A stretch of DNA of 64,000 nt, from the NCBI GenBank assembly GCA_964579625.1, contig CAZOGU010000008.1:848-64847 (forward strand), written 5' to 3'. The translations under genes were made by a program, and so were the position numbers. The notes under the pieces are model-generated. The model saw nothing but the letters and a program-made list of their open reading frames with translations, searched no databases and was not told where the DNA came from. This document shows, piece by piece, positions 3,313 to 60,069 of this stretch. Within the stretch, counting starts at the first letter, position 1. Each line of letters begins with the position of its first letter. The DNA comes from an uncultured Pseudobdellovibrionaceae bacterium. GTDB taxonomy: Bacteria; Bdellovibrionota; Bdellovibrionia; Bdellovibrionales; JAGQZY01.

Positions 3313-3328
3313 TGGTCCCGGCCTTGCT
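3313..3328 (+). promoter_or_regulatory. candidate sigma54 (-24/-12) promoter upstream of Glt-like cluster 1
   Basis: TGGtcccggccTTGCT has the GG and GC dinucleotides at the canonical spacing of TGGCAC-N5-TTGCW. It lies 42 nt upstream of the ATG at 3370. Confidence 0.35.
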
Positions 3329-3369: not shown

Positions 3370-4035
3370 ATGATTACTCAATTAGGAACATTTTTTATGG
3401 CAGGCGGATTTTGGATGTACCCCATCCTGGCCGTTCAAATCGTTAGCATGGCATTAATCTTCGAAAGATATTATGCCCTTTACCTTAAGCGTTCTTTAAA
3501 CGCACGCGACATCGTTGATCATATGGAAAAAGACATTAAATCAGCACAGTTTGATCATATTGTTTCAAAAACAAGCCGCTCAGGCAACGAAGCTTTAACA
3601 GCTCTCACAAAAGTAGGCGTTCAATCGACTCTCGATCATAGCGGACGCGAAGAATTACAACATAAAATGGACGAAATTCTGATCGAAGAATCAGGACGTG
3701 TGGATTCAAGACTTGGTTTTATATCAATGCTTGCCAATGTTGCAACTCTTCTTGGACTTCTTGGAACCATCGTCGGTCTTATTAAATCATTCTCAGGGAT
3801 TGCCAATGCGACTGCTGCTGAAAAAGCACGAATCCTTGCAGAAGGTGTGGGCGAGGCGATGAGTGCCACAGCTTACGGATTGATCGTTGCTGTTCCTGCT
3901 TTGATTGCTTTTGCGATCTTACAAAACAGAGCCAACACATTGGTTGAAGATCTTCATAAAGCCGCTTTAAGAATGTACATCTGGTTGGGCTTTAACATTG
4001 ATTCGGTTTCTTCAAAAAAACAACGCGCGAAGTAA
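3370..4035 (+). CDS. MotA/TolQ/ExbB-family proton channel (AglR-like), cluster 1
   Basis: SMLANVATLLGLLGTIVGLIKSF and GVGEAMSATAYGLIVAVPALIAF are classic TolQ/ExbB TM2-TM3 signatures. GGAGG Shine-Dalgarno upstream. Confidence 0.9.
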   Translation: MITQLGTFFMAGGFWMYPILAVQIVSMALIFERYYALYLKRSLNARDIVDHMEKDIKSAQFDHIVSKTSRSGNEALTALTKVGVQSTLDHSGREELQHKMDEILIEESGRVDSRLGFISMLANVATLLGLLGTIVGLIKSFSGIANATAAEKARILAEGVGEAMSATAYGLIVAVPALIAFAILQNRANTLVEDLHKAALRMYIWLGFNIDSVSSKKQRAK

Positions 4036-4075
4036 TTGACGTAACGTTATTTAATTATTTACCAGAGGACTGTTT

Positions 4076-4522
4076 ATGAGCTCGTTTAGAAAAGAAATTG
4101 AATTCGAACTGAACCTGATACCGTTTATTGATATGTTATCAGCTTGTTTAAGTTTTCTCCTTCTGACAGCCGTATGGTCTTACATCGGTTCGATTGACAC
4201 CCACCAGGCGATTGGCGCAGAAAGTACGAATGGCGCTAATAATCCTCCATCACTGGTGGTTCAGGTTGCAGGAGACCGCAGCTTCCAATTTGACCTTAAA
4301 GATGTAAAAACCAAAAATAAACAGTTCACAATTAAATCACGAAATGGCGAACCCAATTGGGAAAAGATCGATAACTTCCTTGTTTCTGTTCGCAAAAGTA
4401 TCCCTGATCTCAATACATCTGTGGTGATTTCAAAACCAGGTGTTTCTTATGGATTGACGATGAAAACCGTTGATTCTTTACGCAAAGCCGAAATTAAAAA
4501 CGTTGGAATCTCTCCAATCTAA
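4076..4522 (+). CDS. ExbD/TolR-family protein (AglQ/AglS-like), cluster 1 copy a
   Basis: Single N-terminal TM with a conserved Asp (NLIPFIDMLSACLSFLLLTAV) and a periplasmic ExbD-type domain. Confidence 0.85.
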   Translation: MSSFRKEIEFELNLIPFIDMLSACLSFLLLTAVWSYIGSIDTHQAIGAESTNGANNPPSLVVQVAGDRSFQFDLKDVKTKNKQFTIKSRNGEPNWEKIDNFLVSVRKSIPDLNTSVVISKPGVSYGLTMKTVDSLRKAEIKNVGISPI

Positions 4523-4534
4523 AAAGGAATAATT

Positions 4535-5020
4535 ATGAGAACAATGATCAACACCCATCATATTCCTCAGCCAACGACAAGAGGTCTGCTTTTAAGAAAA
4601 AATCAAAGCAAACTTCGTAAAAACATTCAAGCGACAATCACCCTCACTTCGTTGATTGACGCTTTTGTGATTATTGTTCTTTATCTCGTGGTTTGTAACT
4701 CTCCCAGCGAAAGCATGAACCTCGAAGATCAAATCGTTTTACCACAAGCCAAAATTTCCAATCAACTGGATGGGTCTCCGGTCATCACGTTTAAAAACAA
4801 TCAGTTTATGATTGACGGACAGATCGTAAGAGAAGCTGACCTAAGCAAACATTTGTCGCGCATTACAGGCAATCTAAAAAATAAAATTGCGAACAAAGAA
4901 CCCTCTATTATCTTACAAGCCGACGAAAAAGTGGATTTTCATAAACTCCAACCGTTCTTAACAGCCTCGGCCCATGCGGGCATTAAGAATGTTAAATTTG
5001 CAGTCTATCAACAGGAGTAA
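4535..5020 (+). CDS. ExbD/TolR-family protein (AglQ/AglS-like), cluster 1 copy b
   Basis: TM with a conserved Asp (ITLTSLIDAFVIIVLYLVV). C-terminal IILQADEKVDFHKLQPFL is typical of ExbD/TolR. Confidence 0.85.
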   Translation: MRTMINTHHIPQPTTRGLLLRKNQSKLRKNIQATITLTSLIDAFVIIVLYLVVCNSPSESMNLEDQIVLPQAKISNQLDGSPVITFKNNQFMIDGQIVREADLSKHLSRITGNLKNKIANKEPSIILQADEKVDFHKLQPFLTASAHAGIKNVKFAVYQQE

Positions 5021-5023
5021 TCG

Positions 5024-7999
5024 ATGCGTACGCAGATCCGTCTTCTCAGCATCATGGTTTCCATCGGTCTAATGACAGCCGTGTCGTTGGCTGATAAAAT
5101 GGATCTTAATACTCATACGGTCGTTATTGATCGTCTTCGTCAAATTATAAAAACTCTAGACCCCTCAGATGTTTCCAAAGTCCCTTCGACTCTCAGACTT
5201 GCTGATCTTCTTGCCGAACGATCACGTCTTAAAGCTCTTGCCGAGGTTGAACAAAACTGCACAAATTGCCTAAAAGCTAAAGAAGACCGCATCGAGGCTG
5301 TTCAGCATTATGAAGATGTCATCGCACAACTCAAAGACGATCAACGTGGACATGCGATGAGCCAAAAAGCTCATCTTCACTTAAGCTTAAATCAGATTTC
5401 ACAGGCCGAAAAGCTACAGCTTCAAATCACCAAAGAGGGACGCAAGCGTCACCGCGGAGAAATTCTTGGGCAAGCTCATGCCGCTCTCGGCGATATTTAC
5501 TTCCAGAAGTCCGAATTTAAAAAAGCCAAAGCCGAGTACGAAAAATCTCTCAATATCGAAGAAACACAGCAAAAAGGTCTTGTTCATTACCGCTTGGCTT
5601 GGTGTTTGTTTAACTTAGACAAAGTTTCGCAAGCAATTTCAAAACTTGAAATGGTTTTGCAAAATCCAAAATTAACTGAGTATAAAGGCGCCGAAGGAAT
5701 CAGCCAGGACGAATCGTTTAAAATCGATGTTTCAAAAGACCTTGCCTCTTTTTACGCTCGCACCACCATCACTCATAAAACTTTGAACAAAGTGATTAAC
5801 CTTAGCCCTGCAAGCCACCGCATGGAAAACATCCGTTATCTTGCGACCGAAGCCGATCGCCTCGGTAAAAAGAAGGAAGCCGCTTTGGCTTGGGTCTTTT
5901 ACCTTTCAAATACAGATCAAAAGAAAGACGCTCTCGAAGCTCAAGTACGTATTATGAAATTAAAGCGCGACACGGGCGATCTCAATGGCGCGCTTCAGTT
6001 ATTTGCACAGATCAAAGAAACATGGAAAAAGCAAGGCTGTGGAGATCGTTGTGATGAACTCCAAGGCGAAATCCGCCAGTGGATTATTAACTGGAACCGC
6101 GAAGAGAAAAAGATTCAATCCACCCAGCTGACTTTGGCTTATGGTACTTACAGCGAGCTTTTCCCTCAGGACGAAGAAATGCTTCTTCTTGGTGCAACCG
6201 CTGCCCAACAGAGAAAACAGTATAAAAATGCTTACGAGTTCTTTAGACAAGCTGCCACCGTCAGCCATTACAATTTGAACAAATCAAAAAACACAGACGA
6301 AGAAAAGAAGAAACGCACTGAGGTCTTAAACAACTCTCTGGTTGGCGAAATGGACATGGCCGAAACTCTTAAAAATTCAGAATTGCGCATGGCTGCTTAC
6401 CAACATTACCTCACCCTTAACGAAAACGGGGAGCGCGCCTACGAAGTTCGATACCAAATCGCAAAACTTCATTTCGAATTGAAAAACTTTGAAAAAGCGG
6501 CAAACGACTTCCGTTTGTTAGCCATCGATGAAAAAGACAAGTCTCATCAAAAAGAAAAAGTCGAAGCCGCTCATTTGGCTTTGAACTCTTTGATCCAAAT
6601 AAAAAAAGACGAAATCATCGAAGTGTGGAGTCTTGATTTTGCCAATCGTTTTAAAGCTGAGCGAAACGAATTCTATAAAATTCATCGCAAATCAGTTTTA
6701 AATACAGTCGCAGTTAAAATCAACCAGAAGAAGGCCACGGCATCGGATCTCACTAAACTGAAGTCTGTATCCATGGTCGATAGCACTCCGCAAGAGAAGA
6801 AAAACCTCTACAAGAACATGTATCTTTTGTCCTTACATCTTAAAAACTTTAAGGAAGCTCTTCATGCCAACTTAAACACTTTGGCTCTTAAAGATCTTTC
6901 TCAACAAGAACGCCAACAAGCTTTACAAGATCGTATTTGGCTCGCGGAAATGGAACTGGACTACAAAGAAGCTTATCAAGTCACGAAACAACTTGCTGGC
7001 TCCATGACTGCTGAAAAATCATTAAAATTGATTTGGTTAGCCGAAATGGCTCATCTAAAACAAGACTCTCATGAACAGGATTTCTTAAAGTTGAGTCGCA
7101 ATAAAAATCTTCGCGCCACGGTGATCGCTCGCCGTATTCTACGCCAAATGCTTCCACAAAAAGAACTTAAAAAACATCTCAATGAACTTTCACAGTCTCC
7201 GGATGTATTAGCTAAATTGGGTCTAGAGATTTATTCAAAAACCAATAATAAACAGATTTTAGAAGATATCTTTAAATTCACTTCTGTACGTAAGAGCCAA
7301 TACGCTGGACTTATTTCGAGACTCTTAAGTTATTCTTTAATTCAAAAAGATATTGCGCAAATTTCTTCGGCGCGATTAAAGCCACAAAGTCAGACAGCAC
7401 TTAAGAAATCACTTGAAGATCGCATTCAAAAACTGTCTCACTTTGAGACAGCTCTTAAAAACTCGGTCAAAAGTCGAGACCTGATCCTGCAAGCTATTTT
7501 CCTCAACGTGCTCAAGTATGAATATGCGCGTCTCCACAAAGACCTTATAAGCCTCCCATTACCTCGTGGCTTAAACAAAGAACAAACAGAGCAATACAAA
7601 GGGCTCTTAGCACAGCAGGCTCAACCTTACCTCGCCAAGTCTGATAAAATCGAAGAGAAACTTCAGGTTCTGTGGGGACAAGGGGAGTGGACTGATGCTT
7701 TAGCCAATAACTACAAAGCGGCTCGCGTCGAATACAAAGCAGCTCTTAAAGAAGACATCAATCATCTCATTCGTCATGCGCCACCTTCTAAAGCACGAGC
7801 TCTTCAACAAGCTCTCAATGACAAATTCAACTACCCAAGCTCTCTGTCCGTACAACAAGCACAAAGCAATGTACGTAAGAATCCGTTCGACGAGAGCCCC
7901 GTTTTAAAACTCAAAGATCTCGAGCAACAACGTGGGAATGACTTTACAGTCACTCATTTAGAGGCTCGCCTCAATCAAATGAAAGGGTTATTCCGATGA
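5024..7999 (+). CDS. large secreted TPR scaffold protein (GltD/AgmU-like), cluster 1
   Basis: 991 aa with a signal peptide and TPR-like helical repeats throughout. Collinear paralog of 56140..59091, sharing the CTNC/CTVC and C..D.C cysteine pairs. Confidence 0.7.
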   Translation: MRTQIRLLSIMVSIGLMTAVSLADKMDLNTHTVVIDRLRQIIKTLDPSDVSKVPSTLRLADLLAERSRLKALAEVEQNCTNCLKAKEDRIEAVQHYEDVIAQLKDDQRGHAMSQKAHLHLSLNQISQAEKLQLQITKEGRKRHRGEILGQAHAALGDIYFQKSEFKKAKAEYEKSLNIEETQQKGLVHYRLAWCLFNLDKVSQAISKLEMVLQNPKLTEYKGAEGISQDESFKIDVSKDLASFYARTTITHKTLNKVINLSPASHRMENIRYLATEADRLGKKKEAALAWVFYLSNTDQKKDALEAQVRIMKLKRDTGDLNGALQLFAQIKETWKKQGCGDRCDELQGEIRQWIINWNREEKKIQSTQLTLAYGTYSELFPQDEEMLLLGATAAQQRKQYKNAYEFFRQAATVSHYNLNKSKNTDEEKKKRTEVLNNSLVGEMDMAETLKNSELRMAAYQHYLTLNENGERAYEVRYQIAKLHFELKNFEKAANDFRLLAIDEKDKSHQKEKVEAAHLALNSLIQIKKDEIIEVWSLDFANRFKAERNEFYKIHRKSVLNTVAVKINQKKATASDLTKLKSVSMVDSTPQEKKNLYKNMYLLSLHLKNFKEALHANLNTLALKDLSQQERQQALQDRIWLAEMELDYKEAYQVTKQLAGSMTAEKSLKLIWLAEMAHLKQDSHEQDFLKLSRNKNLRATVIARRILRQMLPQKELKKHLNELSQSPDVLAKLGLEIYSKTNNKQILEDIFKFTSVRKSQYAGLISRLLSYSLIQKDIAQISSARLKPQSQTALKKSLEDRIQKLSHFETALKNSVKSRDLILQAIFLNVLKYEYARLHKDLISLPLPRGLNKEQTEQYKGLLAQQAQPYLAKSDKIEEKLQVLWGQGEWTDALANNYKAARVEYKAALKEDINHLIRHAPPSKARALQQALNDKFNYPSSLSVQQAQSNVRKNPFDESPVLKLKDLEQQRGNDFTVTHLEARLNQMKGLFR

Positions 8000-8301
8000 A
8001 CCGACTTTTTCTTCTTATCCAAATCCTCGTTTTAACTCTCGGACTCAATACTCTCGCGCAAGCCAAGAGTTCGAAGTCCAAAAAACAACAAAACCAACAG
8101 GTGACAAAAAAAGTCACCCAAAAGGCCCAAGACAGTCAACTGGGCACCAACTTCTCGTTCGAAGCGGCCTCAGTTCGCGGTAAATACCAAACGGCGGGTC
8201 AGGGAATTGCAATGGTAGAGGACGAAAAGGTTCTTGATGACCTTCTCGGCTTAAGACGATCGTTTAAAGATAGAGAAGCTCAAGAGAATTCAAGACGGTA
8301 A
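7996..8301 (+). CDS. small secreted protein (GltF-like position), cluster 1
   Basis: Signal peptide. The C-terminal motif GKY..(V)E.(E/D)KVLD.LL..R..FKDR is shared with 55842..56129. ATGA overlap with the upstream gene. Confidence 0.6.
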   Translation: MNRLFLLIQILVLTLGLNTLAQAKSSKSKKQQNQQVTKKVTQKAQDSQLGTNFSFEAASVRGKYQTAGQGIAMVEDEKVLDDLLGLRRSFKDREAQENSRR

Positions 8302-8327
8302 TGAGAAAGCTAATGTAGGGATCAATT

Positions 8328-9605
8328 ATGGGATGTTTTGTACTTCAAAATAAAAATAAGCAGACCGTGAGAACTTTCCTTTGGGAAAGCCCTTCTCTTA
8401 TCCTTATTCATCGCCAGGATAACGGTCGCGTCGAAGCCGTTCACTCAACCACAGAACTTGATAAAGACGAAGTTCCGTATGCATTACTTCTCACCACAAC
8501 TAAAAAAGAAGTTCAAGCCAAAGATATTTCTATCAGTGGTATCGGCTATTTAAGTTACAAAGAACAAATCAATCACTTTACTCCGACATATAATCTTCAA
8601 AAAGAAGAATCGAATCTTAAAAAAACCTTCCAATACTCAACCATCACACATGTCAGCATTATCGCGTTTTTCGTTTTATTAAGCTTTATTACAAATTACT
8701 TCTTTAAAGATGAAAAAATTGAGCCTGTTGTTGTAACAATCAATACCGAGCAGCAGCCCATTGAACAGTTTGTTGAACCTAAGAAAAAAGAAACTGTTAA
8801 AATGGCCGAAAAAATCATCAACAAACAACCAAAAATGATGGATGTTAAAAAATCCAACGTTACTAAAAAGATTCAACCTAAAAAAGTCACTGTTGTTAAA
8901 AATATTCCAATTCGTAAAGATGTTCCAGCCAATCGCAAAGGTCCCAATGTTCATCAGATGGGTGTTCTTGGTGCTCTCTCTTCGATGAAGAAAAGCAATG
9001 CTTCAAGTCTCGATTTAAATGGCGTGGGTGAAGGTGGTCGCGGTTCGGGCGGTCGTGGATACGGTGGCTTTGGAAATGGCGGCGGCGGACTTGGTGAAGG
9101 TCTTAAAGGCGGAGCCAGTGGTGCTCTTCCTGGAAAAGGTCTTTTGGCTTCAAGCCCAGGTGCAGGTTCGCAAGCAATGGGTGCTGGTGGTTATGGATCT
9201 TCTGGATCCGGTGGCGGACGACATGGTTTAGGTGGCGGGATTTCTTTCCGCGGTCAGTCGGGTGCTTTTATGGCGCCTCTCACAGAAGAAGCTTCGGTTG
9301 AAAGCGGTTTGGATCGCGATCAAATTGCGGCCGTCGTACAAAAAAACATGGGTCAAATTATTTACTGTTACGAAATGGGTCTTCAGGGTCGTCCAGAACT
9401 TCGCGGTCGTTTGACAGCGCATTGGATGATCAATAGTCAGGGACGCGTGAACACATCACAGATTGCCCACTCAAGCGTGGGTGATAGCAAAGTCGAAAGC
9501 TGTATTGCAGGTAAAATTAAAGGTTGGAAGTTTCCAAAACCAATCGGTGGAGTGAATGTGGATGTTGATTATCCATTTGAACTTCGTCGTGTGAGTCAAA
9601 GGTAG
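8328..9605 (+). CDS. bitopic Gly-rich protein with AgmX/PglI (TonB-C-like) C-terminal domain (GltG-like), cluster 1
   Basis: Cytoplasmic N-domain, one TM (ITHVSIIAFFVLLSFITNYFF), a K/P-rich then G-rich linker. C-terminal IAAVVQKNMGQIIYCYE..GRV..CIAGKIKGWKFPKPIGGVNVDVDYPFEL. Confidence 0.8.
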   Translation: MGCFVLQNKNKQTVRTFLWESPSLILIHRQDNGRVEAVHSTTELDKDEVPYALLLTTTKKEVQAKDISISGIGYLSYKEQINHFTPTYNLQKEESNLKKTFQYSTITHVSIIAFFVLLSFITNYFFKDEKIEPVVVTINTEQQPIEQFVEPKKKETVKMAEKIINKQPKMMDVKKSNVTKKIQPKKVTVVKNIPIRKDVPANRKGPNVHQMGVLGALSSMKKSNASSLDLNGVGEGGRGSGGRGYGGFGNGGGGLGEGLKGGASGALPGKGLLASSPGAGSQAMGAGGYGSSGSGGGRHGLGGGISFRGQSGAFMAPLTEEASVESGLDRDQIAAVVQKNMGQIIYCYEMGLQGRPELRGRLTAHWMINSQGRVNTSQIAHSSVGDSKVESCIAGKIKGWKFPKPIGGVNVDVDYPFELRRVSQR

Positions 9606-9614
9606 GGGTGTTGT

Positions 9615-10451
9615 ATGAAGTTATTTACAAATCTTTTCATTTTAACAAGTTTGTTGGCGGTGGCCTGCGGACCGACAAAGAATGATCCACTCCAAAAGTA
9701 CAAACACTTGAATCTTTCGAAGGATACTCCTTCAACAACACAAAAGGTTCAATTTAAATATCAAGATAAATATATCAAAGGTGACACCATCACAAAGTAC
9801 GTTGCTGTCCCAGTGACAACCGCCGTGAGCAATCAAGTTCTTGTCTATGTCAATAACTGCCCTCCAGAAATTATAAATGATGGGGAAACACCTGCTGACT
9901 GTGCAAAACGACTCACTGAATATGTGCCACAAATTTCTCTAGATGGACCGGTCTTTGAAGTGAAAGCCTATTCCGACGAACAAATGCTTCAAGAGGCTTC
10001 TGTGATTTTTAAAGAAGGCCAGGAAACAACTTATTATGTTGTTGGCAAAGTTCTTTATAAATCGATAGTAAACTTTGAATTAACCTTCGACAATCTTCCC
10101 GTTGGTTCAAAAGTTGAAGAGATCGAAACAACAGATGACGACAATATCGCTAAATATAAAATCACTTGGAAACCAGGACTCGATCTTATTAAAGGTGATA
10201 AAATTTCTGAGCAGTCTTCTCTTGCTACGACGCTCACAAACTTCGAATACAAAGATTCAGCTCAAAACAACTACTTAGTGGAAACAACTTTAGCTTACGT
10301 TTCAAAGAGTACTGAAGTGCCAATGCTTCTTTTATCTTCGGAAACCTCAGAGCTTACAACAGAAGACAGTGTAAGCGCTGAGGTTCAAAATTCAACCACA
10401 GATACAACAGTTCCAAAAACAACTTCATCAGATAGCGGGGGGCGCCGATGA
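9615..10451 (+). CDS. lipoprotein with Ig-like domain (GltK-like position), cluster 1
   Basis: Lipobox LAVAC. AKYKITWKPGLDL resembles LKFKWTPPVGF in the cluster 2 counterpart. Confidence 0.55.
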   Translation: MKLFTNLFILTSLLAVACGPTKNDPLQKYKHLNLSKDTPSTTQKVQFKYQDKYIKGDTITKYVAVPVTTAVSNQVLVYVNNCPPEIINDGETPADCAKRLTEYVPQISLDGPVFEVKAYSDEQMLQEASVIFKEGQETTYYVVGKVLYKSIVNFELTFDNLPVGSKVEEIETTDDDNIAKYKITWKPGLDLIKGDKISEQSSLATTLTNFEYKDSAQNNYLVETTLAYVSKSTEVPMLLLSSETSELTTEDSVSAEVQNSTTDTTVPKTTSSDSGGRR

Positions 10452-11209
10452 AAACTCTTTTAACTTTAACACTCACACTTCTTTTGGTTTCGCCAGCATT
10501 TGCGAAATCCAAAAAGACAAAAAGCACGCAACAAACTGCGAAAACGATTCAAGTCGATCAGCAATTGGATGGTCTTGGATCAAACGACGAGATCATAAAA
10601 AAAGCCCGCGCTTTACAACCCAATAACAGTATGCGCATCGTGCAAAAACGAGAAGTGGATCGCAATCTTCGCCCGGAGCTTGGACTTTCTTATGGATATG
10701 TGAGCGGCGGCGATACTTATCTCGAAACTCGCAACTGGGGAGCCAATCTTGATTTTCACATCACACCTCGCTGGTCTTTAGGACTTCGATACAATGATAA
10801 TAAAAACGCCCTCACTGATGAAGGTCAAAGAGTTTGGGATGCCGCTGCCGTAAAATTAGCCAATGGAGATGCCGATGTTGCAGCTCCCAATGTTGCTTTT
10901 CCAATCCGTTCTTACATGGCTATGATCAACTGGTATCCTATCTACGGTAAAGTGAGCTGGTTTGAGTCCGCAGTTAGTCAATTTGATTTTTACCTCACCG
11001 CTGGTGGTGGACAAGTGGAATGGCGTAACTTTTTCGAAGATGGCACATCTCCTATTTTTACCGGGGGAGCTGGCGTTGGCGTATGGATCAACTCTTGGCT
11101 TACAAGTCGACTTGAAGTTCGTTATCAAAACTACAAAGACCGCGTTGGCAATACCGACAGAACAATCGATGGCGTTGTGATGCAATTTGGAATTGGGATT
11201 ATGTTATGA
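10448..11209 (+). CDS. small outer-membrane beta-barrel protein (GltA/GltB/GltH-like), cluster 1
   Basis: Signal peptide and alternating beta-strand pattern. WYPIYGK and RLEVRYQNY motifs are shared with 52795..53481. Confidence 0.7.
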   Translation: MKTLLTLTLTLLLVSPAFAKSKKTKSTQQTAKTIQVDQQLDGLGSNDEIIKKARALQPNNSMRIVQKREVDRNLRPELGLSYGYVSGGDTYLETRNWGANLDFHITPRWSLGLRYNDNKNALTDEGQRVWDAAAVKLANGDADVAAPNVAFPIRSYMAMINWYPIYGKVSWFESAVSQFDFYLTAGGGQVEWRNFFEDGTSPIFTGGAGVGVWINSWLTSRLEVRYQNYKDRVGNTDRTIDGVVMQFGIGIML

Positions 11210-12033
11210 AAAAGGTTTTGTTAAGTCTTTTTTTGATCCTATTTGCTTCACTTTCTTGGGCTGCCCAAGGCGAACAGAAGATTTTATCCACGGCTCGAAA
11301 ACTTTTTGAACAAAAAAAGTTTAACGAAGCATTGAATGAATATCAAAAAATTCCTAACAAATCGGACCGTTATCTTATCGTCCTCGAAGAAAAAGCCTGG
11401 ACCTATATTCACTTAAACCAATATGATAAAGCACTAGCTGCATCACGCACGTTAACATCTCCCGCTTTAAGCGGACTTACAACAACAGAGCCCTTTCTCT
11501 TAAAAGCTCTTGTGCAACTTAAAATTTGCGACTACGTGGGTGTTTTTCAAACACTTAAAGACTTTAAAACGCAAAAGCGTGAGCAAATTGTCGCTATTCA
11601 AGAGATTGCAAAAACTCGTCAAAATTCTGTTTCTCGTCCCACTCTCGAAAAGTGGATGACAAACACCGAGGACTGGAAAAGTTTAGGCCCAGCGCTTGCG
11701 AAAATGCCACAACTTTTTTACCACGACAAAGGAATGCTTGCGGCTGCTAAAAACAAAAGCATCGCGCAAATGGAACGACGTCTTCAGGAACTTGCTGTTT
11801 TTGAAAACAATGAAAATCATCGCATTTTACAAAAGCTCAATCTGATCGAAGTGGAAGGCGTGCAACGAGTGCACATCGCTTCTCAGTTTAATCAAAAACA
11901 GGGTGAAACTTTAGAAAAATCAGACGACGACCTTGTGTTTAAAGATTCGAAAGATGATGTATGGCTTGACGAACTTGATAGCTATCAAGCAACGATTGAT
12001 CGCTGTCAAAAGAAGTCGGGGAGGACAATGTGA
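11206..12033 (+). CDS. secreted helical/TPR-like protein (GltC/GltE-like), cluster 1
   Basis: Signal peptide. LVQLKICDYVGVFQTLKDF and C-terminal VWLDELDSY..C are shared with the C-terminal half of 51188..52798. Confidence 0.6.
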   Translation: MKKVLLSLFLILFASLSWAAQGEQKILSTARKLFEQKKFNEALNEYQKIPNKSDRYLIVLEEKAWTYIHLNQYDKALAASRTLTSPALSGLTTTEPFLLKALVQLKICDYVGVFQTLKDFKTQKREQIVAIQEIAKTRQNSVSRPTLEKWMTNTEDWKSLGPALAKMPQLFYHDKGMLAAAKNKSIAQMERRLQELAVFENNENHRILQKLNLIEVEGVQRVHIASQFNQKQGETLEKSDDDLVFKDSKDDVWLDELDSYQATIDRCQKKSGRTM

Positions 12034-13463
12034 TGAGTGTGAAGAATGTTTCTCTTATTGTTTTAAGCGCCACTTTGCTCTTGGGTTGTAAACCCAAGAA
12101 TCCGAATCTCTACGGCCAGTACGAAGCGCCAAAACCGCTTCCAGAAAGCCCTATGCCCGAAGTTAAGAATACAGCTGGTCCAAAACCCACGCCTCAAGCA
12201 GCGCCTGAAGGCAAAAAGGTTCAGATCCCTGCTCCAATTCCTACGGCTCCAGAACCAGCTCGTTATACACAGGTGGATGATGAGATTTATAAACCCAAAG
12301 TTGATATTCTCTTCTTTATGGATCAGTCTGACAGCATGAAAGACGACCAAGCCAATTTGCAAAAAAACATTCGCAAATTTGCCGATAATTTTTCAAATAA
12401 AATTCAATTTCTTGATCTTCATATCGGCGTGGTCACTGCCTGGGACTCTATATCATATGCTGATTTAACTAATGATTGTACACTTGGGCAACTTCGCCCT
12501 CTCGGCGGACTCAAAAAACGTATTTCTGATATCAATAAACAAAAATACAAAGGACGATGTGAGCTTCAAGAAAACCAAGTTCCTTATATTACCAATGAAA
12601 CAGATCCTTCTCTTTGGGGTCCAACATTGAGTTTCGGTGTGGAAGCCTTTAAAAGAGAGACTTCAGGAAATGTGGCACTCAACTCGGGACCGCAACACGA
12701 AGAAATTTTTTCATCGGTCATTGCCGCTTTAAGTCCGTCAAATCAAACGATGAATAAAAACTTTCGTCGCTCTGAAGCTCATTTGGCCGTGGTCTTTTTT
12801 ACAGACACAGATGATTTTGATTACATTAACATCGATAAAGATGCGCTCAATCAAGATGCAACAACTAAAGCCTCTTTACAAAAAGAAGCCGCTAAGTTGA
12901 GCGTTAAAGATCGAGAAAATCTTGAAGTTCTTCCAAGTGAAATCGCCCAATTTCTTAAATCCCAAGAAAAAGAAAACGCCACCGTTTCTGTTTACGGAGC
13001 CCTCGGTCGTTACAACGACTGGATCAGCACGAATGGTCAAACACAAGGGGTTTATAAAAATGCTGACTTTTATATTCAGCAGCCCGGTCGCGGTCCGCGC
13101 AAAATAGTTGAATTCTTAGATCTCGTTAATGGAAAAGGTTTTGACTTACGCGACTCGAACTATGGGTCAAAACTAGCTGAAATCGGAAATGACATCGTAA
13201 AAAAGAGCTTAAGACGTGTCATTTCTCTTGATTACACACCTGAAATCGGAAATCCAAAACGTCCGATCATTGTCAAATACGGAGCCACACAAGAGATTCC
13301 GAAAGACGATAATGCGGGCTGGAGCTATCGCGTTGAAAAAGATCAAAATGGGAACAATGTTCACAAAATCATAATTAGCGAAAACTCAAATCTAACCCCA
13401 GAAACAGGCGCTAAATTCAGCGTCGAGTATACGCCAGTAAATGCGCAGACCAACGTCCAGTAG
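12033..13463 (+). CDS. VWA-domain (MIDAS) lipoprotein, CglB-like adhesin candidate, cluster 1
   Basis: Lipobox LLGC, Pro-rich linker, DILFFMDQSDSM (DxSxS MIDAS) and VVFFTDTDD strand. A GTG at 12030 is an alternative start. Confidence 0.7.
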   Translation: MSVKNVSLIVLSATLLLGCKPKNPNLYGQYEAPKPLPESPMPEVKNTAGPKPTPQAAPEGKKVQIPAPIPTAPEPARYTQVDDEIYKPKVDILFFMDQSDSMKDDQANLQKNIRKFADNFSNKIQFLDLHIGVVTAWDSISYADLTNDCTLGQLRPLGGLKKRISDINKQKYKGRCELQENQVPYITNETDPSLWGPTLSFGVEAFKRETSGNVALNSGPQHEEIFSSVIAALSPSNQTMNKNFRRSEAHLAVVFFTDTDDFDYINIDKDALNQDATTKASLQKEAAKLSVKDRENLEVLPSEIAQFLKSQEKENATVSVYGALGRYNDWISTNGQTQGVYKNADFYIQQPGRGPRKIVEFLDLVNGKGFDLRDSNYGSKLAEIGNDIVKKSLRRVISLDYTPEIGNPKRPIIVKYGATQEIPKDDNAGWSYRVEKDQNGNNVHKIIISENSNLTPETGAKFSVEYTPVNAQTNVQ

Positions 13464-13475: not shown

Positions 13476-13507
13476 CAACAAAAAATATTTAGAAATCAGC
13501 CAAAAAA

Positions 13508-13533
13508 CCGATAGATAAATGAATATCTATCGG
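13508..13533 (+). promoter_or_regulatory. perfect 10-bp inverted repeat overlapping the cheX-like ribosome-binding region
   Basis: ccgatagata (13508-13517) / tatctatcgg (13524-13533), loop aatgaa. The right arm runs into the GGGAGAG Shine-Dalgarno of the ATG at 13543. Confidence 0.45.
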
Positions 13534-13542
13534 GAGAGTTTG

Positions 13543-14073
13543 ATGTCTGCGATTCGCAAATCCACCGTTATTATCAAAGAACAAAAACCTGTTACCAAAA
13601 AAAAGCTAGATGTTGCCTTTTTAAATCCCTTTATCAATGCCACAATCAATACAATGAAGGTTCAAGCGTCTGTCGACGTGACGAGCCTGCCTCTCGTCCT
13701 TAAAAATGATTTTAAACAGACTGTAGACATCATCGGTGTTATCAGCTTGGTGAGCAATATTTACGAAGGAAGTATTTCACTCTGTTTCCCAAAAGAAACA
13801 TTTGTAGCTATTTGTAATAATCTTTTTGGTGAATCTCATACAGAAATCAATAGCGAAATCGAAGACGCGGCGGGAGAACTCCTTAATATGATTTTTGGCG
13901 CCGCCAAGGGGCAGCTCAATACTCAATTTGATTATCAAATTTTAAAAGCCTTACCTGCAGTTATATCTGGACAAAGACTTAAGTTAAAACAATCCAAAGG
14001 ACCAACAATTGTTTTACCTTTCACATCCTCAGTTGGTTCATTTCACCTCGAAATCGAAGTGGTAGATAAGTAA
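13543..14073 (+). CDS. cheX: CheX-like CheY-P phosphatase
   Basis: Collinear with the Thermotoga CheX pattern: NPFINATINT.., IGVISLVSNIYEGSISLCF, EDAAGELLNMIFGAAKG, LPAVISGQRLKLK. Start moved from 13519 to the Shine-Dalgarno-preceded ATG at 13543. Confidence 0.8.
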   Translation: MSAIRKSTVIIKEQKPVTKKKLDVAFLNPFINATINTMKVQASVDVTSLPLVLKNDFKQTVDIIGVISLVSNIYEGSISLCFPKETFVAICNNLFGESHTEINSEIEDAAGELLNMIFGAAKGQLNTQFDYQILKALPAVISGQRLKLKQSKGPTIVLPFTSSVGSFHLEIEVVDK

Positions 14074-14080
14074 GGATTAT

Positions 14081-14485
14081 ATGTTTAACACGGCATCGCG
14101 AATTCTTGTTGTTGATGACATGCTGACGATCCGCAAGATTGCTAAAAAAATCTTGGGCGAATTGCATTTTAAACATATCTTTGAAGCGGCTGATGGCAAT
14201 GAAGCCTGGCAGGTGATTAATAGAGAAAAAAATCTAGATCTTATTCTTTCTGATTGGAATATGCCAAAGATGTCTGGACTCGAATTGCTTTCGAAAATCC
14301 GGTCAACTCCCGAGTACGCACATTTGCCTTTTATTATGCTCACCGCCGAGTCAGATATGCTGCAAGTGAAGCAGGCGATTTTGGCCGGAGTGGACGACTA
14401 TGTCTTAAAACCTTTCACGTCCGAAACACTCAAAGCACGCCTCGAAAACACTCATCAAAAAGTGTTAAGTAAAAAAGCTGCTTAA
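14081..14485 (+). CDS. CheY-like single-domain response regulator
   Basis: REC domain residues are present: VVDD, LILSDWNMPKMSG, MLTAES, VLKPF. Confidence 0.9.
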   Translation: MFNTASRILVVDDMLTIRKIAKKILGELHFKHIFEAADGNEAWQVINREKNLDLILSDWNMPKMSGLELLSKIRSTPEYAHLPFIMLTAESDMLQVKQAILAGVDDYVLKPFTSETLKARLENTHQKVLSKKAA

Positions 14486-50139: not shown

Positions 50140-51165
50140 CTACTTGACTTTCTTAGGTGTTTCTACTGGGGCGACTTCGAAATCCACTTGCGGGAATGTA
50201 TTCGGTGGATAGAGATCCCATTCGATATTTGGCCCGAAGACAATGGCAATTTTTTCGGGATGATACGCCCAACCCTTCAATTTGTCTTGCGGCAATTCCA
50301 CGCCATCCATAGTGACTTTGATGGTTTTGGGAACAGGCTTTTTGCTGAGATACATAATTTGAGATTTCGCGGCAATGCTTTCTCCGGCCTCAGCGAGATT
50401 TTCACCAAAATCATCGCAGAGGGAAAATGTTTTTGCATTTGTCAGTTTAAAAAAATCATTTAAACCATCATAATCTTCAAGCTCCGAAGTTTCACCTGAG
50501 CAAACTCCAATCTCACTTTCAGGAATATGAGCGGCCGCAACATAAATCTTTTCGGCGCTCCCTTTGATCGTGAGCAAAAAGTCGTACAAGCTTTGTGCAT
50601 CTTGCTGGATAGATTGATCTTCCGTGTCCGTGATAAAAATCAGCGCTAAATTTGCCTCGGGCCGATAAAAACCAGCGTTGTGACCTGTGAGTAAAGGATC
50701 ACTGAGTGCTAAATAGATAGGATCGAAAAATTTTTCGGTGTAGTCGCCGCTCGTGCCAACCAACATATTCCTGGCTAGCGCATTGATCCCATTGGGTGTA
50801 TTTCGATCTACATAAAGTGGTGCTCCTACAAGTTTGCCACAGCATTTTGGAGTGGGATAGTAACCTCCGGTAGTACTCGTGACGACGCCCACATGATAGT
50901 CGAGATACGTCGTTCGAACAATGGCATCAGCAAATTTAGAAATATTGTTTGCCAAGTTTTGTTGATGTTCACTCATACTGCCAGAATCATCAATCACAAA
51001 CAAAATATCTAGCTTCGGCTGAAAAGTGTCCTTACCGACTGGCGCCACCTCGGTTTTTGAATCTGTCTCAAGCTCTACTTTGGGAATGAGCTTGGGATTC
51101 TTTTCGGTGCAACTTGCAAAGAAACAAAATCCACTGAGAAAAATAATTTTAAAAATTGTATTCAT
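50140..51165 (-). CDS. VWA-domain (MIDAS) lipoprotein, CglB-like adhesin candidate, cluster 2
   Basis: Lipobox FASC, DILFVIDDSGSM (DxSxS), LIFITDTED strand. Paralog of 12033..13463. Confidence 0.7.
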   Translation of the reverse strand: MNTIFKIIFLSGFCFFASCTEKNPKLIPKVELETDSKTEVAPVGKDTFQPKLDILFVIDDSGSMSEHQQNLANNISKFADAIVRTTYLDYHVGVVTSTTGGYYPTPKCCGKLVGAPLYVDRNTPNGINALARNMLVGTSGDYTEKFFDPIYLALSDPLLTGHNAGFYRPEANLALIFITDTEDQSIQQDAQSLYDFLLTIKGSAEKIYVAAAHIPESEIGVCSGETSELEDYDGLNDFFKLTNAKTFSLCDDFGENLAEAGESIAAKSQIMYLSKKPVPKTIKVTMDGVELPQDKLKGWAYHPEKIAIVFGPNIEWDLYPPNTFPQVDFEVAPVETPKKVK

Positions 51166-51187
51166 TGGGACCCCTTTAAAAGGCTCA

Positions 51188-52798
51188 TTATTTCTGAATC
51201 GCCTGACAACCTTTAACTACATCCACTTTGTACTTGCCAATTTCATCAAACCAAACTTGACCGTCTTCTACTGGAAAAGAAATTTGATCTTTGGCTGTTG
51301 CCACAGTGGTGCCCTTTTTTTCGAGAACCTGACTGTCTTTTGTTGCCTTGGCAATTTTTTGAGCTGACAACGCCTGCTGCATGACTTCGGCTTCAACAAT
51401 GTGCATTTTTTGAAGCAGTCGATGGATATCAGCGACTTCCTCTGTGGCCAGCGCTTTCATTCGCGCGAGAGAGGCATTGCGGGCCTCGTTCACCTGAGCA
51501 TCAATCGATTTTTTAAAAATATCCAAATCACCCTGCAATCCAACTTTTGATGTGGAATTTGCCAAACTGCGCCCGTAGATACCCATCGCGATGTCGGCTT
51601 CTTTTTCTAACTCGCGCTCAAGCACGATGTGATTGTATAAGGCTTCGTCGCGCGTGACCAAGCGAGGAAGTCGCGCCGCCATGGCACCTAGCTCTGTCGT
51701 CTTAAGACGTTGCTTCTTCATCTTTGCAATAAATTCTTTTGCCACAGGAGTCGCCGGATTTTGTGACAAGGCTAACATCTCTGCTGTTTTGGGCTTAAAA
51801 CGCTCGCGAAAGGTCGATAGCGTTTTTAAAACTCCAGGATAATCACAAACTTTAAGCTGTCCCAAAGATCGTAAAAAAACTGTTTCTGCACCAACAATAT
51901 CACGCAATTCCGGGATCAGAAGGCTCTGAGTTGCAGCCATAGTGTTTTGTGGCTCACCTTTACGCAAGTAAGACCAACCCATCTCCTCTTGCGCCTCCAA
52001 CCAAAACTCGGACTTGGTTGGAATTTTTTTGTAGTACTTCACAGCGGCGTCCATATAGCCATTTTCGAAAAGCATTCGCGCGGCTGTCATGTTCATTAGA
52101 TCCATTCCAACGGGGTTGGATGGTGTCGACATTAAACTGTTTAAAAGTTTTGCCGCTGTGGTGGAATCGCCACTTAAAGCCATTGCGATCACGAGTTGCC
52201 ACTGAATCGCGGCACGATCGGTTGTTCCAGGTGCAGAAATTTTAATTATGTTTTTTAACTCTTCGATGTCTTTTGCCGTAAAAACTTTTTTAGACTTCAC
52301 TTGTACTTCGACTGACGGGCTAAAGACTTTCGTCCATTCTGGCTTCCACGAAATTCGTGCGATTTTCCAGACCGGGTGATTGTCGGCAAGCATTTCACGC
52401 AGAGGCTGCATTAAAACAGGAGATAGTTTCGCCGGATTGACCTGGGCAAAAAGTGTTTCCACTCCGTAGACAGTCATATTATTTTTTAGAAACAAATACA
52501 CCAAAAGACCTTGCCCATTGGCTGTCTTTGCCGTTTCACTTTTTCCAAACGCCTCAAAGTATTGCAAAAGTGCTTTTTCAAACTCACCACTTTGCATCAG
52601 TGCAAATAGAATATTTTGTTCCGCTGTCGTTCTCGGAAAAAGAGCCTTAAAGGGAGATGTCTCCTCGCCGCTGTCTTGCTTTTTTTGTTTTTCCGTTTTG
52701 GTTTGATCCGAAGCTCCACCTAAAATAGAGAGGACGTCATCTTCTGCAAAAGCAATGTCGGAAAAAATGAAAACACTTAAAAAAATCAATTTCTTCAT
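51188..52798 (-). CDS. secreted TPR/helical protein (GltC/GltE-like), cluster 2
   Basis: Signal peptide. The C-terminal half is collinear with 11206..12033 (LGQLKVCDYPGVLKTL, VWFDEIGKY..C). Carries an extra ~260-aa N-terminal region. Confidence 0.6.
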   Translation of the reverse strand: MKKLIFLSVFIFSDIAFAEDDVLSILGGASDQTKTEKQKKQDSGEETSPFKALFPRTTAEQNILFALMQSGEFEKALLQYFEAFGKSETAKTANGQGLLVYLFLKNNMTVYGVETLFAQVNPAKLSPVLMQPLREMLADNHPVWKIARISWKPEWTKVFSPSVEVQVKSKKVFTAKDIEELKNIIKISAPGTTDRAAIQWQLVIAMALSGDSTTAAKLLNSLMSTPSNPVGMDLMNMTAARMLFENGYMDAAVKYYKKIPTKSEFWLEAQEEMGWSYLRKGEPQNTMAATQSLLIPELRDIVGAETVFLRSLGQLKVCDYPGVLKTLSTFRERFKPKTAEMLALSQNPATPVAKEFIAKMKKQRLKTTELGAMAARLPRLVTRDEALYNHIVLERELEKEADIAMGIYGRSLANSTSKVGLQGDLDIFKKSIDAQVNEARNASLARMKALATEEVADIHRLLQKMHIVEAEVMQQALSAQKIAKATKDSQVLEKKGTTVATAKDQISFPVEDGQVWFDEIGKYKVDVVKGCQAIQK

Positions 52799-53481: not shown

Positions 53482-53488
53482 AAAAACC

Positions 53489-54706: not shown

Positions 54707-54707
54707 T

Positions 54708-55823: not shown

Positions 55824-55841
55824 AATATCTCCCCTTATGCC

Positions 55842-56129: not shown

Positions 56130-56139
56130 ACTGTTCCCC

Positions 56140-59091: not shown

Positions 59092-59098
59092 AAACCCC

Positions 59099-60045: not shown

Positions 60046-60069
60046 CGAAGCTCCCCCCTAAAAAAGAAC

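Follow-up and report, generated by a model that had tools for sequence, protein, structure and literature searches.

A ten-gene cluster encoding a probable proton-driven Agl-Glt-type gliding machine in an uncultured Bdellovibrionales lineage

Bdellovibrio bacteriovorus is a proven glider that carries four Agl/Glt-like gene clusters (PMC3169522). One of them, Bd0411-0421 of strain HD100, was described as a gliding cluster in publications of 2010-2011. Luciano et al. 2011 (Table S3; PMC3169522) assigned Bd0413/14/16/17 to GltC/B/G/D and Bd0418/19/20 to AglS/Q/R, and described the compact Bdellovibrio layout, which has its own stator and is without GltH/I/J/K. In B. bacteriovorus, biofilm predation was lowered by a transposon insertion with the annotation aglR (Bd1481; PMC2277423), an insertion in aglS (Bd0838) abolished prey attachment (PMC6561027), and gliding-cluster proteins reach their maxima at particular stages of predation (PMC12546842). 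According to a 2026 review, the machinery for gliding in Bdellovibrio "remains unidentified" (PMC13104615). Here, we report a cluster of the same type (copy 1) and its paralog (copy 2), both found in a 64,000-nt stretch of DNA (the window). The source is an uncultured Bdellovibrionales lineage whose nearest relatives are MAGs.

The ten co-directional open reading frames of copy 1 lie exactly where the initial annotation had placed them (Table 1). Four genes start with 4-nt start/stop overlaps (7996, 10448, 11206, and 12030), the remaining intergenic gaps are 3 to 40 nt, and the first ATG is preceded by a GGAGGA ribosome-binding site. The gene order (TolQ, TolR, TolR, GltD-like TPR, GltF-like, GltG-like, Ig-like lipoprotein, barrel, GltC-like, VWA lipoprotein) is best explained as a single operon that encodes a trans-envelope machine of the Agl-Glt type.

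Table 1. Positions of the two gene clusters and of flanking elements in the window
Feature	Coordinates	Strand	Evidence
Ten-gene unit, copy 1	3370-13463	+	ORFs
TolQ/ExbB-type proton channel, AglR-like, 221 aa, three TM segments	3370..4035	+	PF01618
TolR/ExbD-type stator plug 1, AglQ-like, 148 aa, TM Asp19	4076..4522	+	PF02472
TolR/ExbD-type stator plug 2, AglS-like, 161 aa, TM Asp42	4535..5020	+	PF02472
Periplasmic TPR/helical scaffold, GltD (AgmU)-like, 991 aa, signal peptide, two Cys pairs	5024..7999	+	hhalign
Small secreted protein, GltF/CglF-like, 101 aa	7996..8301	+	CglF profile matches
GltG-like bitopic transducer, 425 aa	8328..9605	+	NF033768, NF033760
Ig-like lipoprotein, 278 aa, lipobox VAC|G	9615..10451	+	AF2 and Foldseek
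Outer-membrane beta-barrel, GltA/GltB family, 253 aa, YPIYGK motif	10448..11209	+	TIGR04565
Periplasmic TPR/helical protein, GltC-like, 275 aa	11206..12033	+	NF033756
VWA/MIDAS lipoprotein, adhesin candidate	12030..13463	+	AF2 fold, lipobox, MIDAS motif
Ten-gene unit, copy 2 (paralogous)	50140..60822	-	Family matches as in copy 1
Predicted sigma-54-type -24/-12 promoter element, TGGTCCCGGCCTTGC (GG-N10-GC)	3313..3327	+	Motif and conservation
Gene pair directly downstream (CheX-like phosphatase, single-domain response regulator)	13519..14485	+	Pfam

Pfam profile searches bore out the reading of the first three products as one TolQ/ExbB-type channel (PF01618, 93.8 bits; cut-off, 22.9) and two ExbD/TolR proteins (PF02472, 48.4 and 46.8 bits; cut-off, 25.4). 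TM2 and TM3 of the channel align with solved ExbB/TolQ, with the G-T and E..AT motifs conserved. Both TolR-type proteins keep the transmembrane Asp: D19 of plug 1 (motif PFIDML) is matched to E. coli TolR Asp23 in alignments with solved TolQR structures, and D42 of plug 2 (motif SLIDAF), which has a longer cytoplasmic N-tail, is read from the LIDAF motif alone because this protein gave zero matches to PDB sequences. The evidence supports reading the set as Agl/Glt-like, with a stator of 1 TolQ : 2 TolR encoded in the cluster, a ratio that we infer for the subunits themselves.

Curated models, a GltD profile match, a confident structure model (that of the VWA lipoprotein), and the gene order of the published B. 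bacteriovorus cluster agree with the Agl/Glt-like reading of the initial annotation. The scaffold family profile matched a GltD-position protein, P0089 (hhalign; probability, 99.4%; E, 8.9e-22; 765 aligned columns), which sits in a myxobacterial-type cluster where its neighbors pass the GltC, GltE, CglF, and GltG equivalog cut-offs. The copy-1 scaffold is 32% identical across 99% of its length to Bd0417, which carries the name "Adventurous gliding motility protein U." Both Cys pairs described for it are conserved (CTNC, C79/C82, in 31 of 33 family members; C339/C343, with variable spacing), but the pattern C..D.C given for the second pair fits copy 2, and copy 1 reads CGDRC. The small secreted protein is assigned as GltF-like by profile comparison: its copy-2 paralog (34% identity) matches NF033764 gliding_CglF (E, 2.4e-5), and the family profile (79 sequences) aligns with the C-terminal 54 residues of bona fide CglF (hhalign; probability, 91%; E, 1e-6). 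The transducer comprises a conserved cytoplasmic N-domain of ~95 aa with invariant residues, a single TM segment, a Gly-rich linker, and the AgmX/PglI TonB-C-like domain that had been proposed for it (NF033768, 101.9 bits; cut-off, 40). Its match to NF033760 GltG (E, 1e-35; 123.5 bits) is below the cut-off of 650; in hhalign against bona fide GltG only the Gly-rich and C-terminal parts aligned, and no FHA domain did.

Among the outer-membrane parts, the proposed YPIYGK-type barrel was borne out by TIGR04565 OMP_myx_plus (105.9 bits; cut-off, 60) and by the motif in both copies; it is the cluster's sole barrel. The GltC-like protein corresponds to the C-terminal half of GltC (NF033756 gliding_GltC; E, 2.1e-9; model positions 326 to 539 of 622; below the cut-off), and its copy-2 paralog matches the same model at E 1.6e-20. 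The Ig-like lipoprotein yielded no family match in Pfam and curated model searches; its AF2 model (pLDDT 60 overall) has a disordered linker of ~75 residues and then a beta-sandwich core (pLDDT 75 to 88) that matches Ig-like domains in Foldseek (E, about 2e-4), so the proposed Ig-like character is moderately supported by the modeled fold. It occupies the place of GltK in the Myxococcus xanthus G2 cluster, a relation of position only. The VWA lipoprotein has a confident AF2 model (pLDDT 87.6; pTM 0.81), whose best Foldseek matches are headpieces of integrin beta and PitA, a pilus VWA adhesin (E, about 1e-8). The MIDAS motif is intact, and D-x-S-x-S at residues 98 to 102, together with an invariant Glu and an invariant Asp, is retained throughout the family. 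Its earlier identification thus stands on fold, but is weak by sequence (Pfam), with weak matches to NF052240 (Bd0875-type MIDAS adhesin) and to the CglD VWA region; membership of the CglB family was not detectable. The gene is last in nearly all complete loci, and we regard its product as a conserved, fast-evolving member and candidate CglB-like adhesin. Deletion of a related MIDAS lipoprotein, Bd1483, caused no invasion defect (PMC11003981). The two lipoproteins evolve fastest among the ten proteins, foremost the Ig-like one (28 to 38% identity versus about 80% for the motor and GltG), which fits the surface exposure that we would expect of both.

Of the 80 Bdellovibrionota loci retrieved with a GltG pattern, essentially all complete ones share the ten-gene order, which argues that the unit is more than chance. 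The order is identical in Bd0411-0421 (locus L088), where Bd0419, Bd0418, Bd0414, and Bd0413 are the orthologs of plug 1, plug 2, the barrel, and the GltC-like protein, and copy 1 falls with that locus in one deep clade (clade A) of the TPR protein tree. The paralogous copy noted at the outset (60822-50140, minus strand) has the same order and family matches. Its proteins are 25 to 44% identical to their copy-1 counterparts, except the Ig-like lipoprotein, for which no significant match between copies was found. Copy 2 lies in a separate deep clade and resembles Bd2368-2377 by gene sizes only. The copy-1 order D-F-G, then lipoprotein-barrel-C, mirrors the M. xanthus clusters G1 (gltD-E-F-G) and G2 (gltK-B-A-C). 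Gliding in M. xanthus depends on GltE, GltH, GltI, and GltJ, on a second barrel, and on FHA domains in GltG, all missing here: none of the four proteins was found in the cluster or the window, and each ten-gene unit has one barrel. The suggested absence of GltE/I/J-like giants therefore holds, although GltE (about 450 aa) is no giant.

The predicted sigma-54-type element precedes the first ATG by 57 nt and lies within a leader of ~140 nt conserved among orthologous loci. In 15/16 copy-1-clade loci, B. bacteriovorus included, TGG-N8-TTGC (background, 0.087 per kb per strand) precedes the likely TolQ start by no more than about 90 nt, most often by 45 to 65 nt; it occurs at the matching position in 0 copy-2-clade loci. 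The downstream pair (Pfam CheX, E 8e-18; Response_reg, E 2e-28) is syntenic only in close copy-1 orthologs (L001, L005, L011, and L012), and neither B. bacteriovorus nor the other clade-A loci have it there; it is possibly a lineage-specific accessory of uncertain membership.

We give a probability of roughly 0.6 to a proton-driven Agl-Glt-type gliding machine running from stator to surface adhesin, with contacts proposed by analogy with M. xanthus (PMC11761067). A TolQ-like pentameric channel would hold a heterodimer of the two different TolR-like proteins, each with a proton-binding Asp, and would use proton-motive force to drive movement within the inner membrane. This movement would pass to the GltG-like protein, whose Gly-rich linker could span the periplasm and whose TonB-C-like domain may dock onto the GltD-like scaffold. 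The GltF-like and GltC-like proteins would bridge the scaffold to the single barrel, which, with the Ig-like lipoprotein, may display the VWA/MIDAS lipoprotein on the cell surface. Against the gliding reading count the GltG and GltC scores under the full-length equivalog cut-offs, the missing M. xanthus gliding parts, the undetected CglB membership of the VWA protein, the purely positional GltK relation, the Bd1483 deletion result, and the statement of the 2026 review.

Placement among Tol-Pal or TonB-dependent uptake systems had been named as what would overturn this reading; the rival here is a Tol-Pal or TonB-ExbBD system serving envelope integrity or energized uptake. The top NCBIfam names of the first three proteins are indeed TolQ, TolR, and ExbD, the GltG C-domain has a faint TonB_C match, and there are weak YbgF/CpoB-like matches to TPR proteins; yet all Tol and Exb equivalogs score far under their cut-offs (TolQ, 83 versus 221; TolR, 28 versus 127), the cluster is without TolA, TolB, Pal, or a TonB-dependent transporter, the barrel is of the small myxobacterial type, and the transducer ends in an AgmX/PglI domain instead of a TonB C-domain. 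Such a placement is highly improbable, effectively refuted by composition; equivalog cut-offs are also missed widely. It is improbable, too, that the cluster is an ancestral Agl/Glt core complex with a nonmotility envelope function, such as surface polymer transport or arrangement, as the Nfs spore-coat system of M. xanthus exemplifies, or a role like that of the gammaproteobacterial core complex. That aglRQS and gltC, D, E, and G also occur in nongliding bacteria and that paralogous M. xanthus clusters serve nonmotility roles (Luciano 2011, PMC3169522) would suit it, as would the missing M. xanthus gliding parts. However, the GltF-like protein and the GltA/B-type barrel, both present, belong to a gene group restricted to Myxococcales and Bdellovibrionales, the cluster has an adhesin-type VWA lipoprotein, the gliding Bdellovibrio carries such clusters, and no polysaccharide synthesis or export genes were found adjoining either copy.

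Possible, if rather unlikely, is the same machine with another job: the copy-1 type as a predation-stage device, switched on by a sigma-54 activator and giving traction or repositioning in prey entry and early bdelloplast establishment, and the copy-2 type serving general gliding and exit. The deep clade shared with Bd0411-0421 and the promoter element confined to the copy-1 clade favor this division, and Bd0411-0421 alone of the four clusters is up-regulated 30 min into predation (PMC2797640), its proteins peaking at 45 to 60 min and those of Bd2368-2377 at exit (PMC12546842). It presupposes, though, a predatory source organism; the expression timing comes from a single species and does not equal function, the depth of clade A makes orthology of role uncertain, and the copy-2 link is the gene-size resemblance.

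For the gliding machine, the novelty of a compact, stator-carrying layout is lower than had been implied, as Luciano et al. 2011 already described it and the unit is that of Bd0411-0421. The present analysis adds the absence of GltE, GltI, and GltJ together with a GltG lacking FHA domains, the GltF-like assignment, the placing of the Ig-like lipoprotein at the GltK position, the terminal VWA lipoprotein as a conserved, fast-evolving CglB-like adhesin candidate, and the predicted promoter shared by the copy-1 clade. Copy 1 extends the known Bdellovibrio-type gliding cluster to an uncultured relative, in which the motor, moving against an anchored adhesin, would generate traction for gliding over abiotic or prey surfaces.

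The initial annotation had described copy 1, the Agl/Glt-like cluster at 3370-13463 (+), as ten co-directional, tightly coupled genes with start/stop overlaps. The ORF map returned all ten at these coordinates, with a 4-nt overlap at four junctions and gaps of 3-40 nt at the remaining ones. The first ATG is preceded by a GGAGGA ribosome-binding site. For the last gene, the database gene call starts at ATG 12033 and an exact-sequence look-up with the GTG start gave no match; ATG 12033 may be the true start. The GC content of copy 1 (~41%) is not conspicuous within the window, and the neighborhood of the clusters consists of chromosomal housekeeping genes (DnaE, GuaA, GuaB, HemB, thiolase, and BamB). 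Copy 2, the paralogous cluster, has ten genes in the order of copy 1; proteins of the two copies are 25-44% identical, and no similarity between their lipoproteins at position seven was detectable pairwise. Scans of 3000-15200 gave 24 sigma-70 promoters (19.4 expected from shuffling) and 17 terminators (13.6 expected), neither above expectation, and these counts therefore offer no evidence on operon boundaries. Rfam returned nothing at the gathering threshold for the whole window and nothing at E<=1, including any riboswitch, for the copy 1 leader; a tRNA scan found none.

The interval between the two clusters includes genes for a hybrid histidine kinase (HAMP-PAS-PAS, with receiver domain), a eukaryotic-type carbonic anhydrase, and a protein carrying two cyclic-nucleotide-binding domains. 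A perfect 51-nt inverted repeat (58-nt spacer) between the copy 2 TolQ gene and the upstream ORF is the only one in the window and was found in none of 89 related loci; a small mobile element, a regulatory hairpin, and an assembly artifact are all conceivable. Rfam "miRNA" matches in the copy 2 leader were produced by this long perfect hairpin and were rejected.

Features of the two clusters and of the sequence around them
Feature	Position	Strand	Remark
Leader 5' of first gene	3168-3369		
Predicted sigma-54-type -24/-12 element	3313-3327	+	TGGTCCCGGCCTTGC; GG-N10-GC spacing
Protein 1, TolQ/AglR-like	3370-4035	+	
Protein 2, TolR-like	4076-4522	+	
Protein 3, TolR-like	4535-5020	+	
Protein 4, GltD-like TPR scaffold	5024-7999	+	
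Scaffold C79/C82	5258-5269		
Scaffold C339/C343	6038-6052		
Protein 5, GltF-like	7996-8301	+	
Protein 6, GltG-like	8328-9605	+	
GltG-like N-domain	8328-8620		residues 1-95
Protein 7, lipoprotein	9615-10451	+	
Protein 8, barrel	10448-11209	+	
Protein 9, GltC-like	11206-12033	+	
Protein 10, VWA lipoprotein	12030-13463	+	
Inverted repeat	13508-13533		10-bp stem, CCGATAGATA...TATCTATCGG
CheX-like phosphatase, single-domain response regulator, SprT-like/DUF2786 protein	13519-16178	+	directly 3' of copy 1
Hybrid histidine kinase	18586-21450	-	
Carbonic anhydrase	24007-24804	+	
Cyclic-nucleotide-binding protein	29305-30531	-	
Copy 2	60822-50140	-	
GG-N11-GC	60903-60919		
51-nt inverted repeat	61001-61160		

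In a search for relatives, a GltG pattern run against one genome per species gave 80 loci, nearly all labeled Bdellovibrionota (three carried other or mislabeled MAG names); the closest were uncultured Bdellovibrionales MAGs (GltG identity, 83%). ORFs were classified with HMMs built from six clusters and applied to 88 loci and the window. Essentially every complete locus has ten genes in one direction, in the order TolQ-TolR-TolR-GltD-small protein-GltG-lipoprotein-barrel-GltC-VWA, with VWA last. Some copy 2-clade loci (L074, L077, L087, and L004) end in two tandem VWA lipoprotein genes, not one. The B. bacteriovorus locus around Bd0417 (L088, in strain CP020946) has the identical layout and equals the published Bd0411-0421. 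By this synteny comparison, the compact stator-bearing cluster proposed in the initial annotation is real, but its layout is not new: it is that of the standard published Bdellovibrio gliding cluster, and copy 1 is an ordinary representative of a system already known.

Copy 1 resembles Bd0411-0421 in gene order, in deep scaffold clade, in its upstream sigma-54-type element, and in protein sizes (221/148/161/991/101/425/278/253/275/477 aa against 248/149/165/987/93/408/357/246/358/423 aa). Identity is, however, only 27-51% (nine members, near full length); for the lipoprotein, which the family HMM detects, pairwise similarity is local only (32% over 63 aa). The B. bacteriovorus cluster adjoins two flagellin genes and is without CheX/response-regulator neighbors. 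The CheX/response regulator/SprT-like trio follows the cluster in the close orthologs L001, L005, L011, and L012 and not in more distant clade-A loci; since the synteny is restricted to close orthologs, CheX and the response regulator were left out of the core cluster. An inverted repeat spans the ATG of the CheX-like ORF, and the database call for this gene starts further downstream than that ATG.

The TPR scaffold tree has two deep clades: copy 1 falls with Bd0411-0421, and copy 2 with several Bdellovibrio sp. genomes. Since some MAGs have a locus from either clade, the duplication is an old one. Four "tonB-like/adventurous gliding" operons have been listed in HD100 (Bd0412-0420, Bd0828-0838, Bd1473-1483, and Bd2368-2377; Lambert et al. 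2010, PMC2797640). The published sizes for Bd2368-2377 (GltC/B/G/D and AglS/Q/R, 531/235/376/996/175/151/244 aa) match those of copy 2 in the same order (536/~230/371/983/164/151/250 aa) and those of the copy 2 clade, and size pattern and clade together suggest a relative of copy 2, not copy 1. Table S3 of Luciano et al. 2011 (PMC3169522) assigned Bd0413/0414/0416/0417/0418/0419/0420 to GltC/GltB/GltG/GltD/AglS/AglQ/AglR, listed GltE only as Bd0833 and GltF only as Bd1477 and Bd3600, and gave no assignment to the small protein, lipoprotein, or VWA protein of the ten-gene unit.

The stator proteins bear out the claim of a TolQ-type channel with two TolR-type proteins that keep the transmembrane Asp. 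Protein 1, whose ortholog Bd0420 was named AglR (Luciano 2011, PMC3169522), matched the MotA/TolQ/ExbB channel family PF01618 at 93.8 bits (cut-off, 22.9), and its TM2/TM3 aligns with solved ExbB/TolQ, with G-T and E..AT motifs kept. Proteins 2 and 3 matched PF02472 (ExbD/TolR) at 48.4 and 46.8 bits (cut-off, 25.4); Asp19 of protein 2 aligned to Asp23 of E. coli TolR, and Asp42 of protein 3 was assigned from the motif alone.

Profile-HMM search likewise upheld the AgmX/PglI TonB-C-like end reported for the Gly-rich bitopic protein 6 (NF033768, 101.9 bits; cut-off, 40). The GltG equivalog NF033760 was matched at E 1e-35 and 123.5 bits, under its cut-off of 650, and hhalign aligned the family with bona fide GltG at 99.7% probability over the C-terminal 161 columns (Gly-rich stretch and C-terminal domain). 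Pfam found no FHA domain, and the N-terminus, left uncovered by the profile comparison, could not be aligned with the FHA region; protein 6 thus lacks the FHA domains of myxobacterial GltG. In their place stands a conserved cytoplasmic N-domain (~95 aa) with invariant Arg/Asp/Glu positions in both clades and no family match. A reduced FHA was rejected for this domain, given the failed alignment; the domain may serve cytoplasmic regulators as a docking site.

The 991-aa TPR protein had no named NCBIfam match. P0089, a 1167-aa bona fide GltD-position protein from a myxobacterial-type G2+G1 cluster whose neighbors score above the curated equivalog cut-offs for GltC, GltE, CglF (GltF), and GltG, had no GltD match in NCBIfam either; the library therefore probably holds no GltD model, and hhalign was used instead. 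The 33-sequence family profile retrieved P0089 (E 3e-29; hhalign probability, 99.4% over 765 columns) and B. bacteriovorus Bd0417, labeled "Adventurous gliding motility protein U" (AgmU/GltD), which together make the scaffold GltD-like. Its two Cys pairs, which had been said to recur in the paralog, are kept in both Bdellovibrionota clades (C79/C82 in 31/33 family sequences; the second pair with variable spacing), and both are missing from P0089. The pairs probably form periplasmic disulfides or bind a metal. The small secreted protein is GltF-like by profile homology under the curated threshold: the copy 2 paralog matched NF033764 (CglF) at E 2.4e-5 and 24 bits (cut-off, 90), and the 79-sequence family profile matched bona fide CglF at 91% probability.

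At the outer membrane, protein 8 matched the OMP_myx_plus barrel TIGR04565 (105.9 bits; cut-off, 60); each cluster has this single barrel, neither an A/B pair nor GltH. Protein 9 and its copy 2 paralog matched GltC (NF033756) at E 2.1e-9 (36.7 bits) and E 1.6e-20 (73.4 bits), under the cut-off of 450 and over the C-terminal half of the model only; Bd0413 has been assigned to GltC (Luciano 2011, PMC3169522). The 278-aa lipoprotein, encoded at the GltK position just ahead of the barrel gene, combines a disordered linker with a beta-sandwich core; the core matches Ig-like domains weakly, so that the label "Ig-like" of the initial annotation is plausible, not firm. In eight loci (L029, L080, L036, L038, L062, L070, L078, and L086), the lipoprotein HMM matched no ORF in the GltG-barrel interval, and the gene there may be absent or too diverged for detection.

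The terminal VWA lipoprotein of the initial annotation gained a confident AF2 model (pLDDT, 87.6) whose best Foldseek matches were integrin beta headpieces and the PitA pilus adhesin. In its family, the MIDAS D-x-S-x-S, one Glu, and one Asp are invariant or nearly so, and most members have a lipobox. Matches to the CglD VWA region and to the Bd0875-type model NF052240 were weak (the latter 21 bits against a 700-bit cut-off, with only the MIDAS strand region aligned), the Pfam Integrin_beta match in copy 1 was weak (E 0.018), and the family profile found only generic MIDAS-strand matches among PDB sequences. An integrin-beta ADMIDAS-like "DxSxSMKDD" in the copy 1 protein was dropped as chance, "KDD" not being conserved in the family. 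We regard the protein as a putative adhesin and a CglB analog rather than a demonstrated ortholog; a search of the searchable literature found no paper linking the terminal VWA protein to a CglB-like role. Identity between close orthologs is 28-38% for the 278-aa lipoprotein and 43-62% for the VWA lipoprotein, against ~45-94% for the other members, and this fastest evolution of the two lipoproteins fits surface exposure. Bd0875 and Bd1483 (PMC11003981), described as lipoproteins whose MIDAS domain sits within a small beta domain and not discussed there as gliding adhesins, share lipidation with the VWA protein and are linked to it by its weak match to NF052240; Bd1483 also adjoins a gliding cluster. 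In that cluster Bd1483 lies upstream of aglR, whereas the VWA gene in the window is terminal in its operon.

The likeness to M. xanthus Agl-Glt covers a TolQ-like channel paired with two distinct TolR-like proteins, a transducer of GltG type with the AgmX/PglI domain, a GltD homolog, GltF-, GltC-, and GltA/B-like proteins, and a VWA/MIDAS lipoprotein as putative adhesin; the order D-F-G followed by lipoprotein-barrel-C mirrors gltD-E-F-G (G1) and gltK-B-A-C (G2). The differences are one operon here against separate M1, G1, G2, and cglB loci there, one barrel against three, a GltG without both FHA domains but with another N-domain and a Gly-rich linker, two scaffold Cys pairs not found in myxobacterial-type GltD, and an integrin-beta-like adhesin candidate whose VWA domain sits within a beta domain, whereas in CglB a Cys-rich VWA domain follows an N-terminal jellyroll. 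GltE, GltH, GltI, and GltJ are missing here. The proposed lack of GltE/I/J-like proteins held in model and Pfam searches of the cluster and the 64-kb window: no cluster protein matched NF033758 for GltE (a TPR lipoprotein of ~450 aa), which gave 296.8 bits on the GltE of locus L089; Pfam found no further TPR protein among the other larger window ORFs; and no GltI or GltJ protein of the cytoplasmic/inner-membrane platform occurs in the window, the GltJ model NF033761 matching only the C-terminal domain common to GltG and GltJ.

Composition and scores also decide against a Tol-Pal or TonB uptake system. Both have in common with the cluster a stator of the 5:2-type TolQ/ExbB-TolR/ExbD family and a transducer of TonB-like logic, but copy 1 has two distinct TolR paralogs and lacks TolA, TolB, Pal, and any TonB-dependent transporter. 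Searches of the cluster gave neither a TolB nor a Pal domain, TonB_Cterm reached 13.8 against a cut-off of 27.1, and plug and 22-strand barrel proteins are missing. The equivalog cut-offs were missed widely for TolQ (83 against 221 bits), TolR (27.8 against 127), ExbB (57.8 against 206), and ExbD, so the stator proteins are family members and not Tol/Exb orthologs. Tol-Pal and TonB uptake are thereby excluded and the Agl/Glt-like interpretation, which is supported, is kept; a non-motility role resembling that of the ancestral core complex or Nfs finds little support.

A narrower role of the copy 1 clade in prey entry is a serious variant of the Agl/Glt-like reading, favored by expression timing in B. 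bacteriovorus and by the sigma-54-type promoter. During predation, proteins of Bd0411-0421 reach their maximum at 45-60 min and those of Bd2368-2377 at exit (PMC12546842). The copy 1 leader is conserved among orthologs, and TGG-N8-TTGC (background, 0.087 per kb per strand) lies within about 90 nt 5' of the likely TolQ start, mostly at 45-65 nt, in 15/16 copy 1-clade loci, in B. bacteriovorus as TGGCACCCCCCTTGC. It occurs at the TolQ-upstream position in none of ~40 copy 2-clade loci; copy 2 itself has only an off-by-one GG-N11-GC. Sigma-54 control of the copy 1-clade clusters is a prediction from these motifs; a literature search found no paper tying sigma-54 to them. Functional hints come solely from B. 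bacteriovorus and include phenotypes of its other gliding loci: Bd1481 and Bd1483 insertions lower biofilm predation (PMC2277423), and prey attachment is lost on insertion in Bd0838 (PMC6561027).

The M. xanthus model (PMC11761067) suggests, by analogy, how the Agl/Glt-like machine most likely works. A TolQ-like pentamer with a TolR1/TolR2 heterodimer would turn proton flow into movement, the GltG-like protein would pass movement over the periplasm to the GltD-like scaffold, the GltF-like and GltC-like proteins would link scaffold to barrel, and the barrel, together with the GltK-position lipoprotein, would display the VWA/MIDAS lipoprotein outside as an adhesin; we infer all protein contacts, the lipoprotein topology, and the motility output. 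A more novel reading takes the operon as a complete, self-sufficient minimal focal-adhesion machine, in which the barrel, Ig-like lipoprotein, and integrin-beta-like VWA lipoprotein would stand for GltA/B/H/K-CglB and the undescribed GltG N-domain for the GltI/GltJ/FHA platform, with the copy 1 clade sigma-54-controlled for prey entry and the copy 2 clade serving general gliding and exit. We hold this joint reading tentatively, at a probability of roughly 0.3; if true, the machine would be the smallest gliding apparatus yet defined, one tractable for reconstitution.

A 2026 review still calls the Bdellovibrio gliding machinery unidentified (PMC13104615). The comparison sharpens the candidate list for Bdellovibrio-type gliding: the ten-gene unit is fixed across the order, an ancient duplication split it into two clades found side by side in single genomes, and the unit, in summary, always ends in a fast-evolving VWA/MIDAS lipoprotein. 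The conserved sigma-54-type element could account, testably, for the differing expression timing of the paralogous clusters. These points give direct experimental targets in the tractable B. bacteriovorus.
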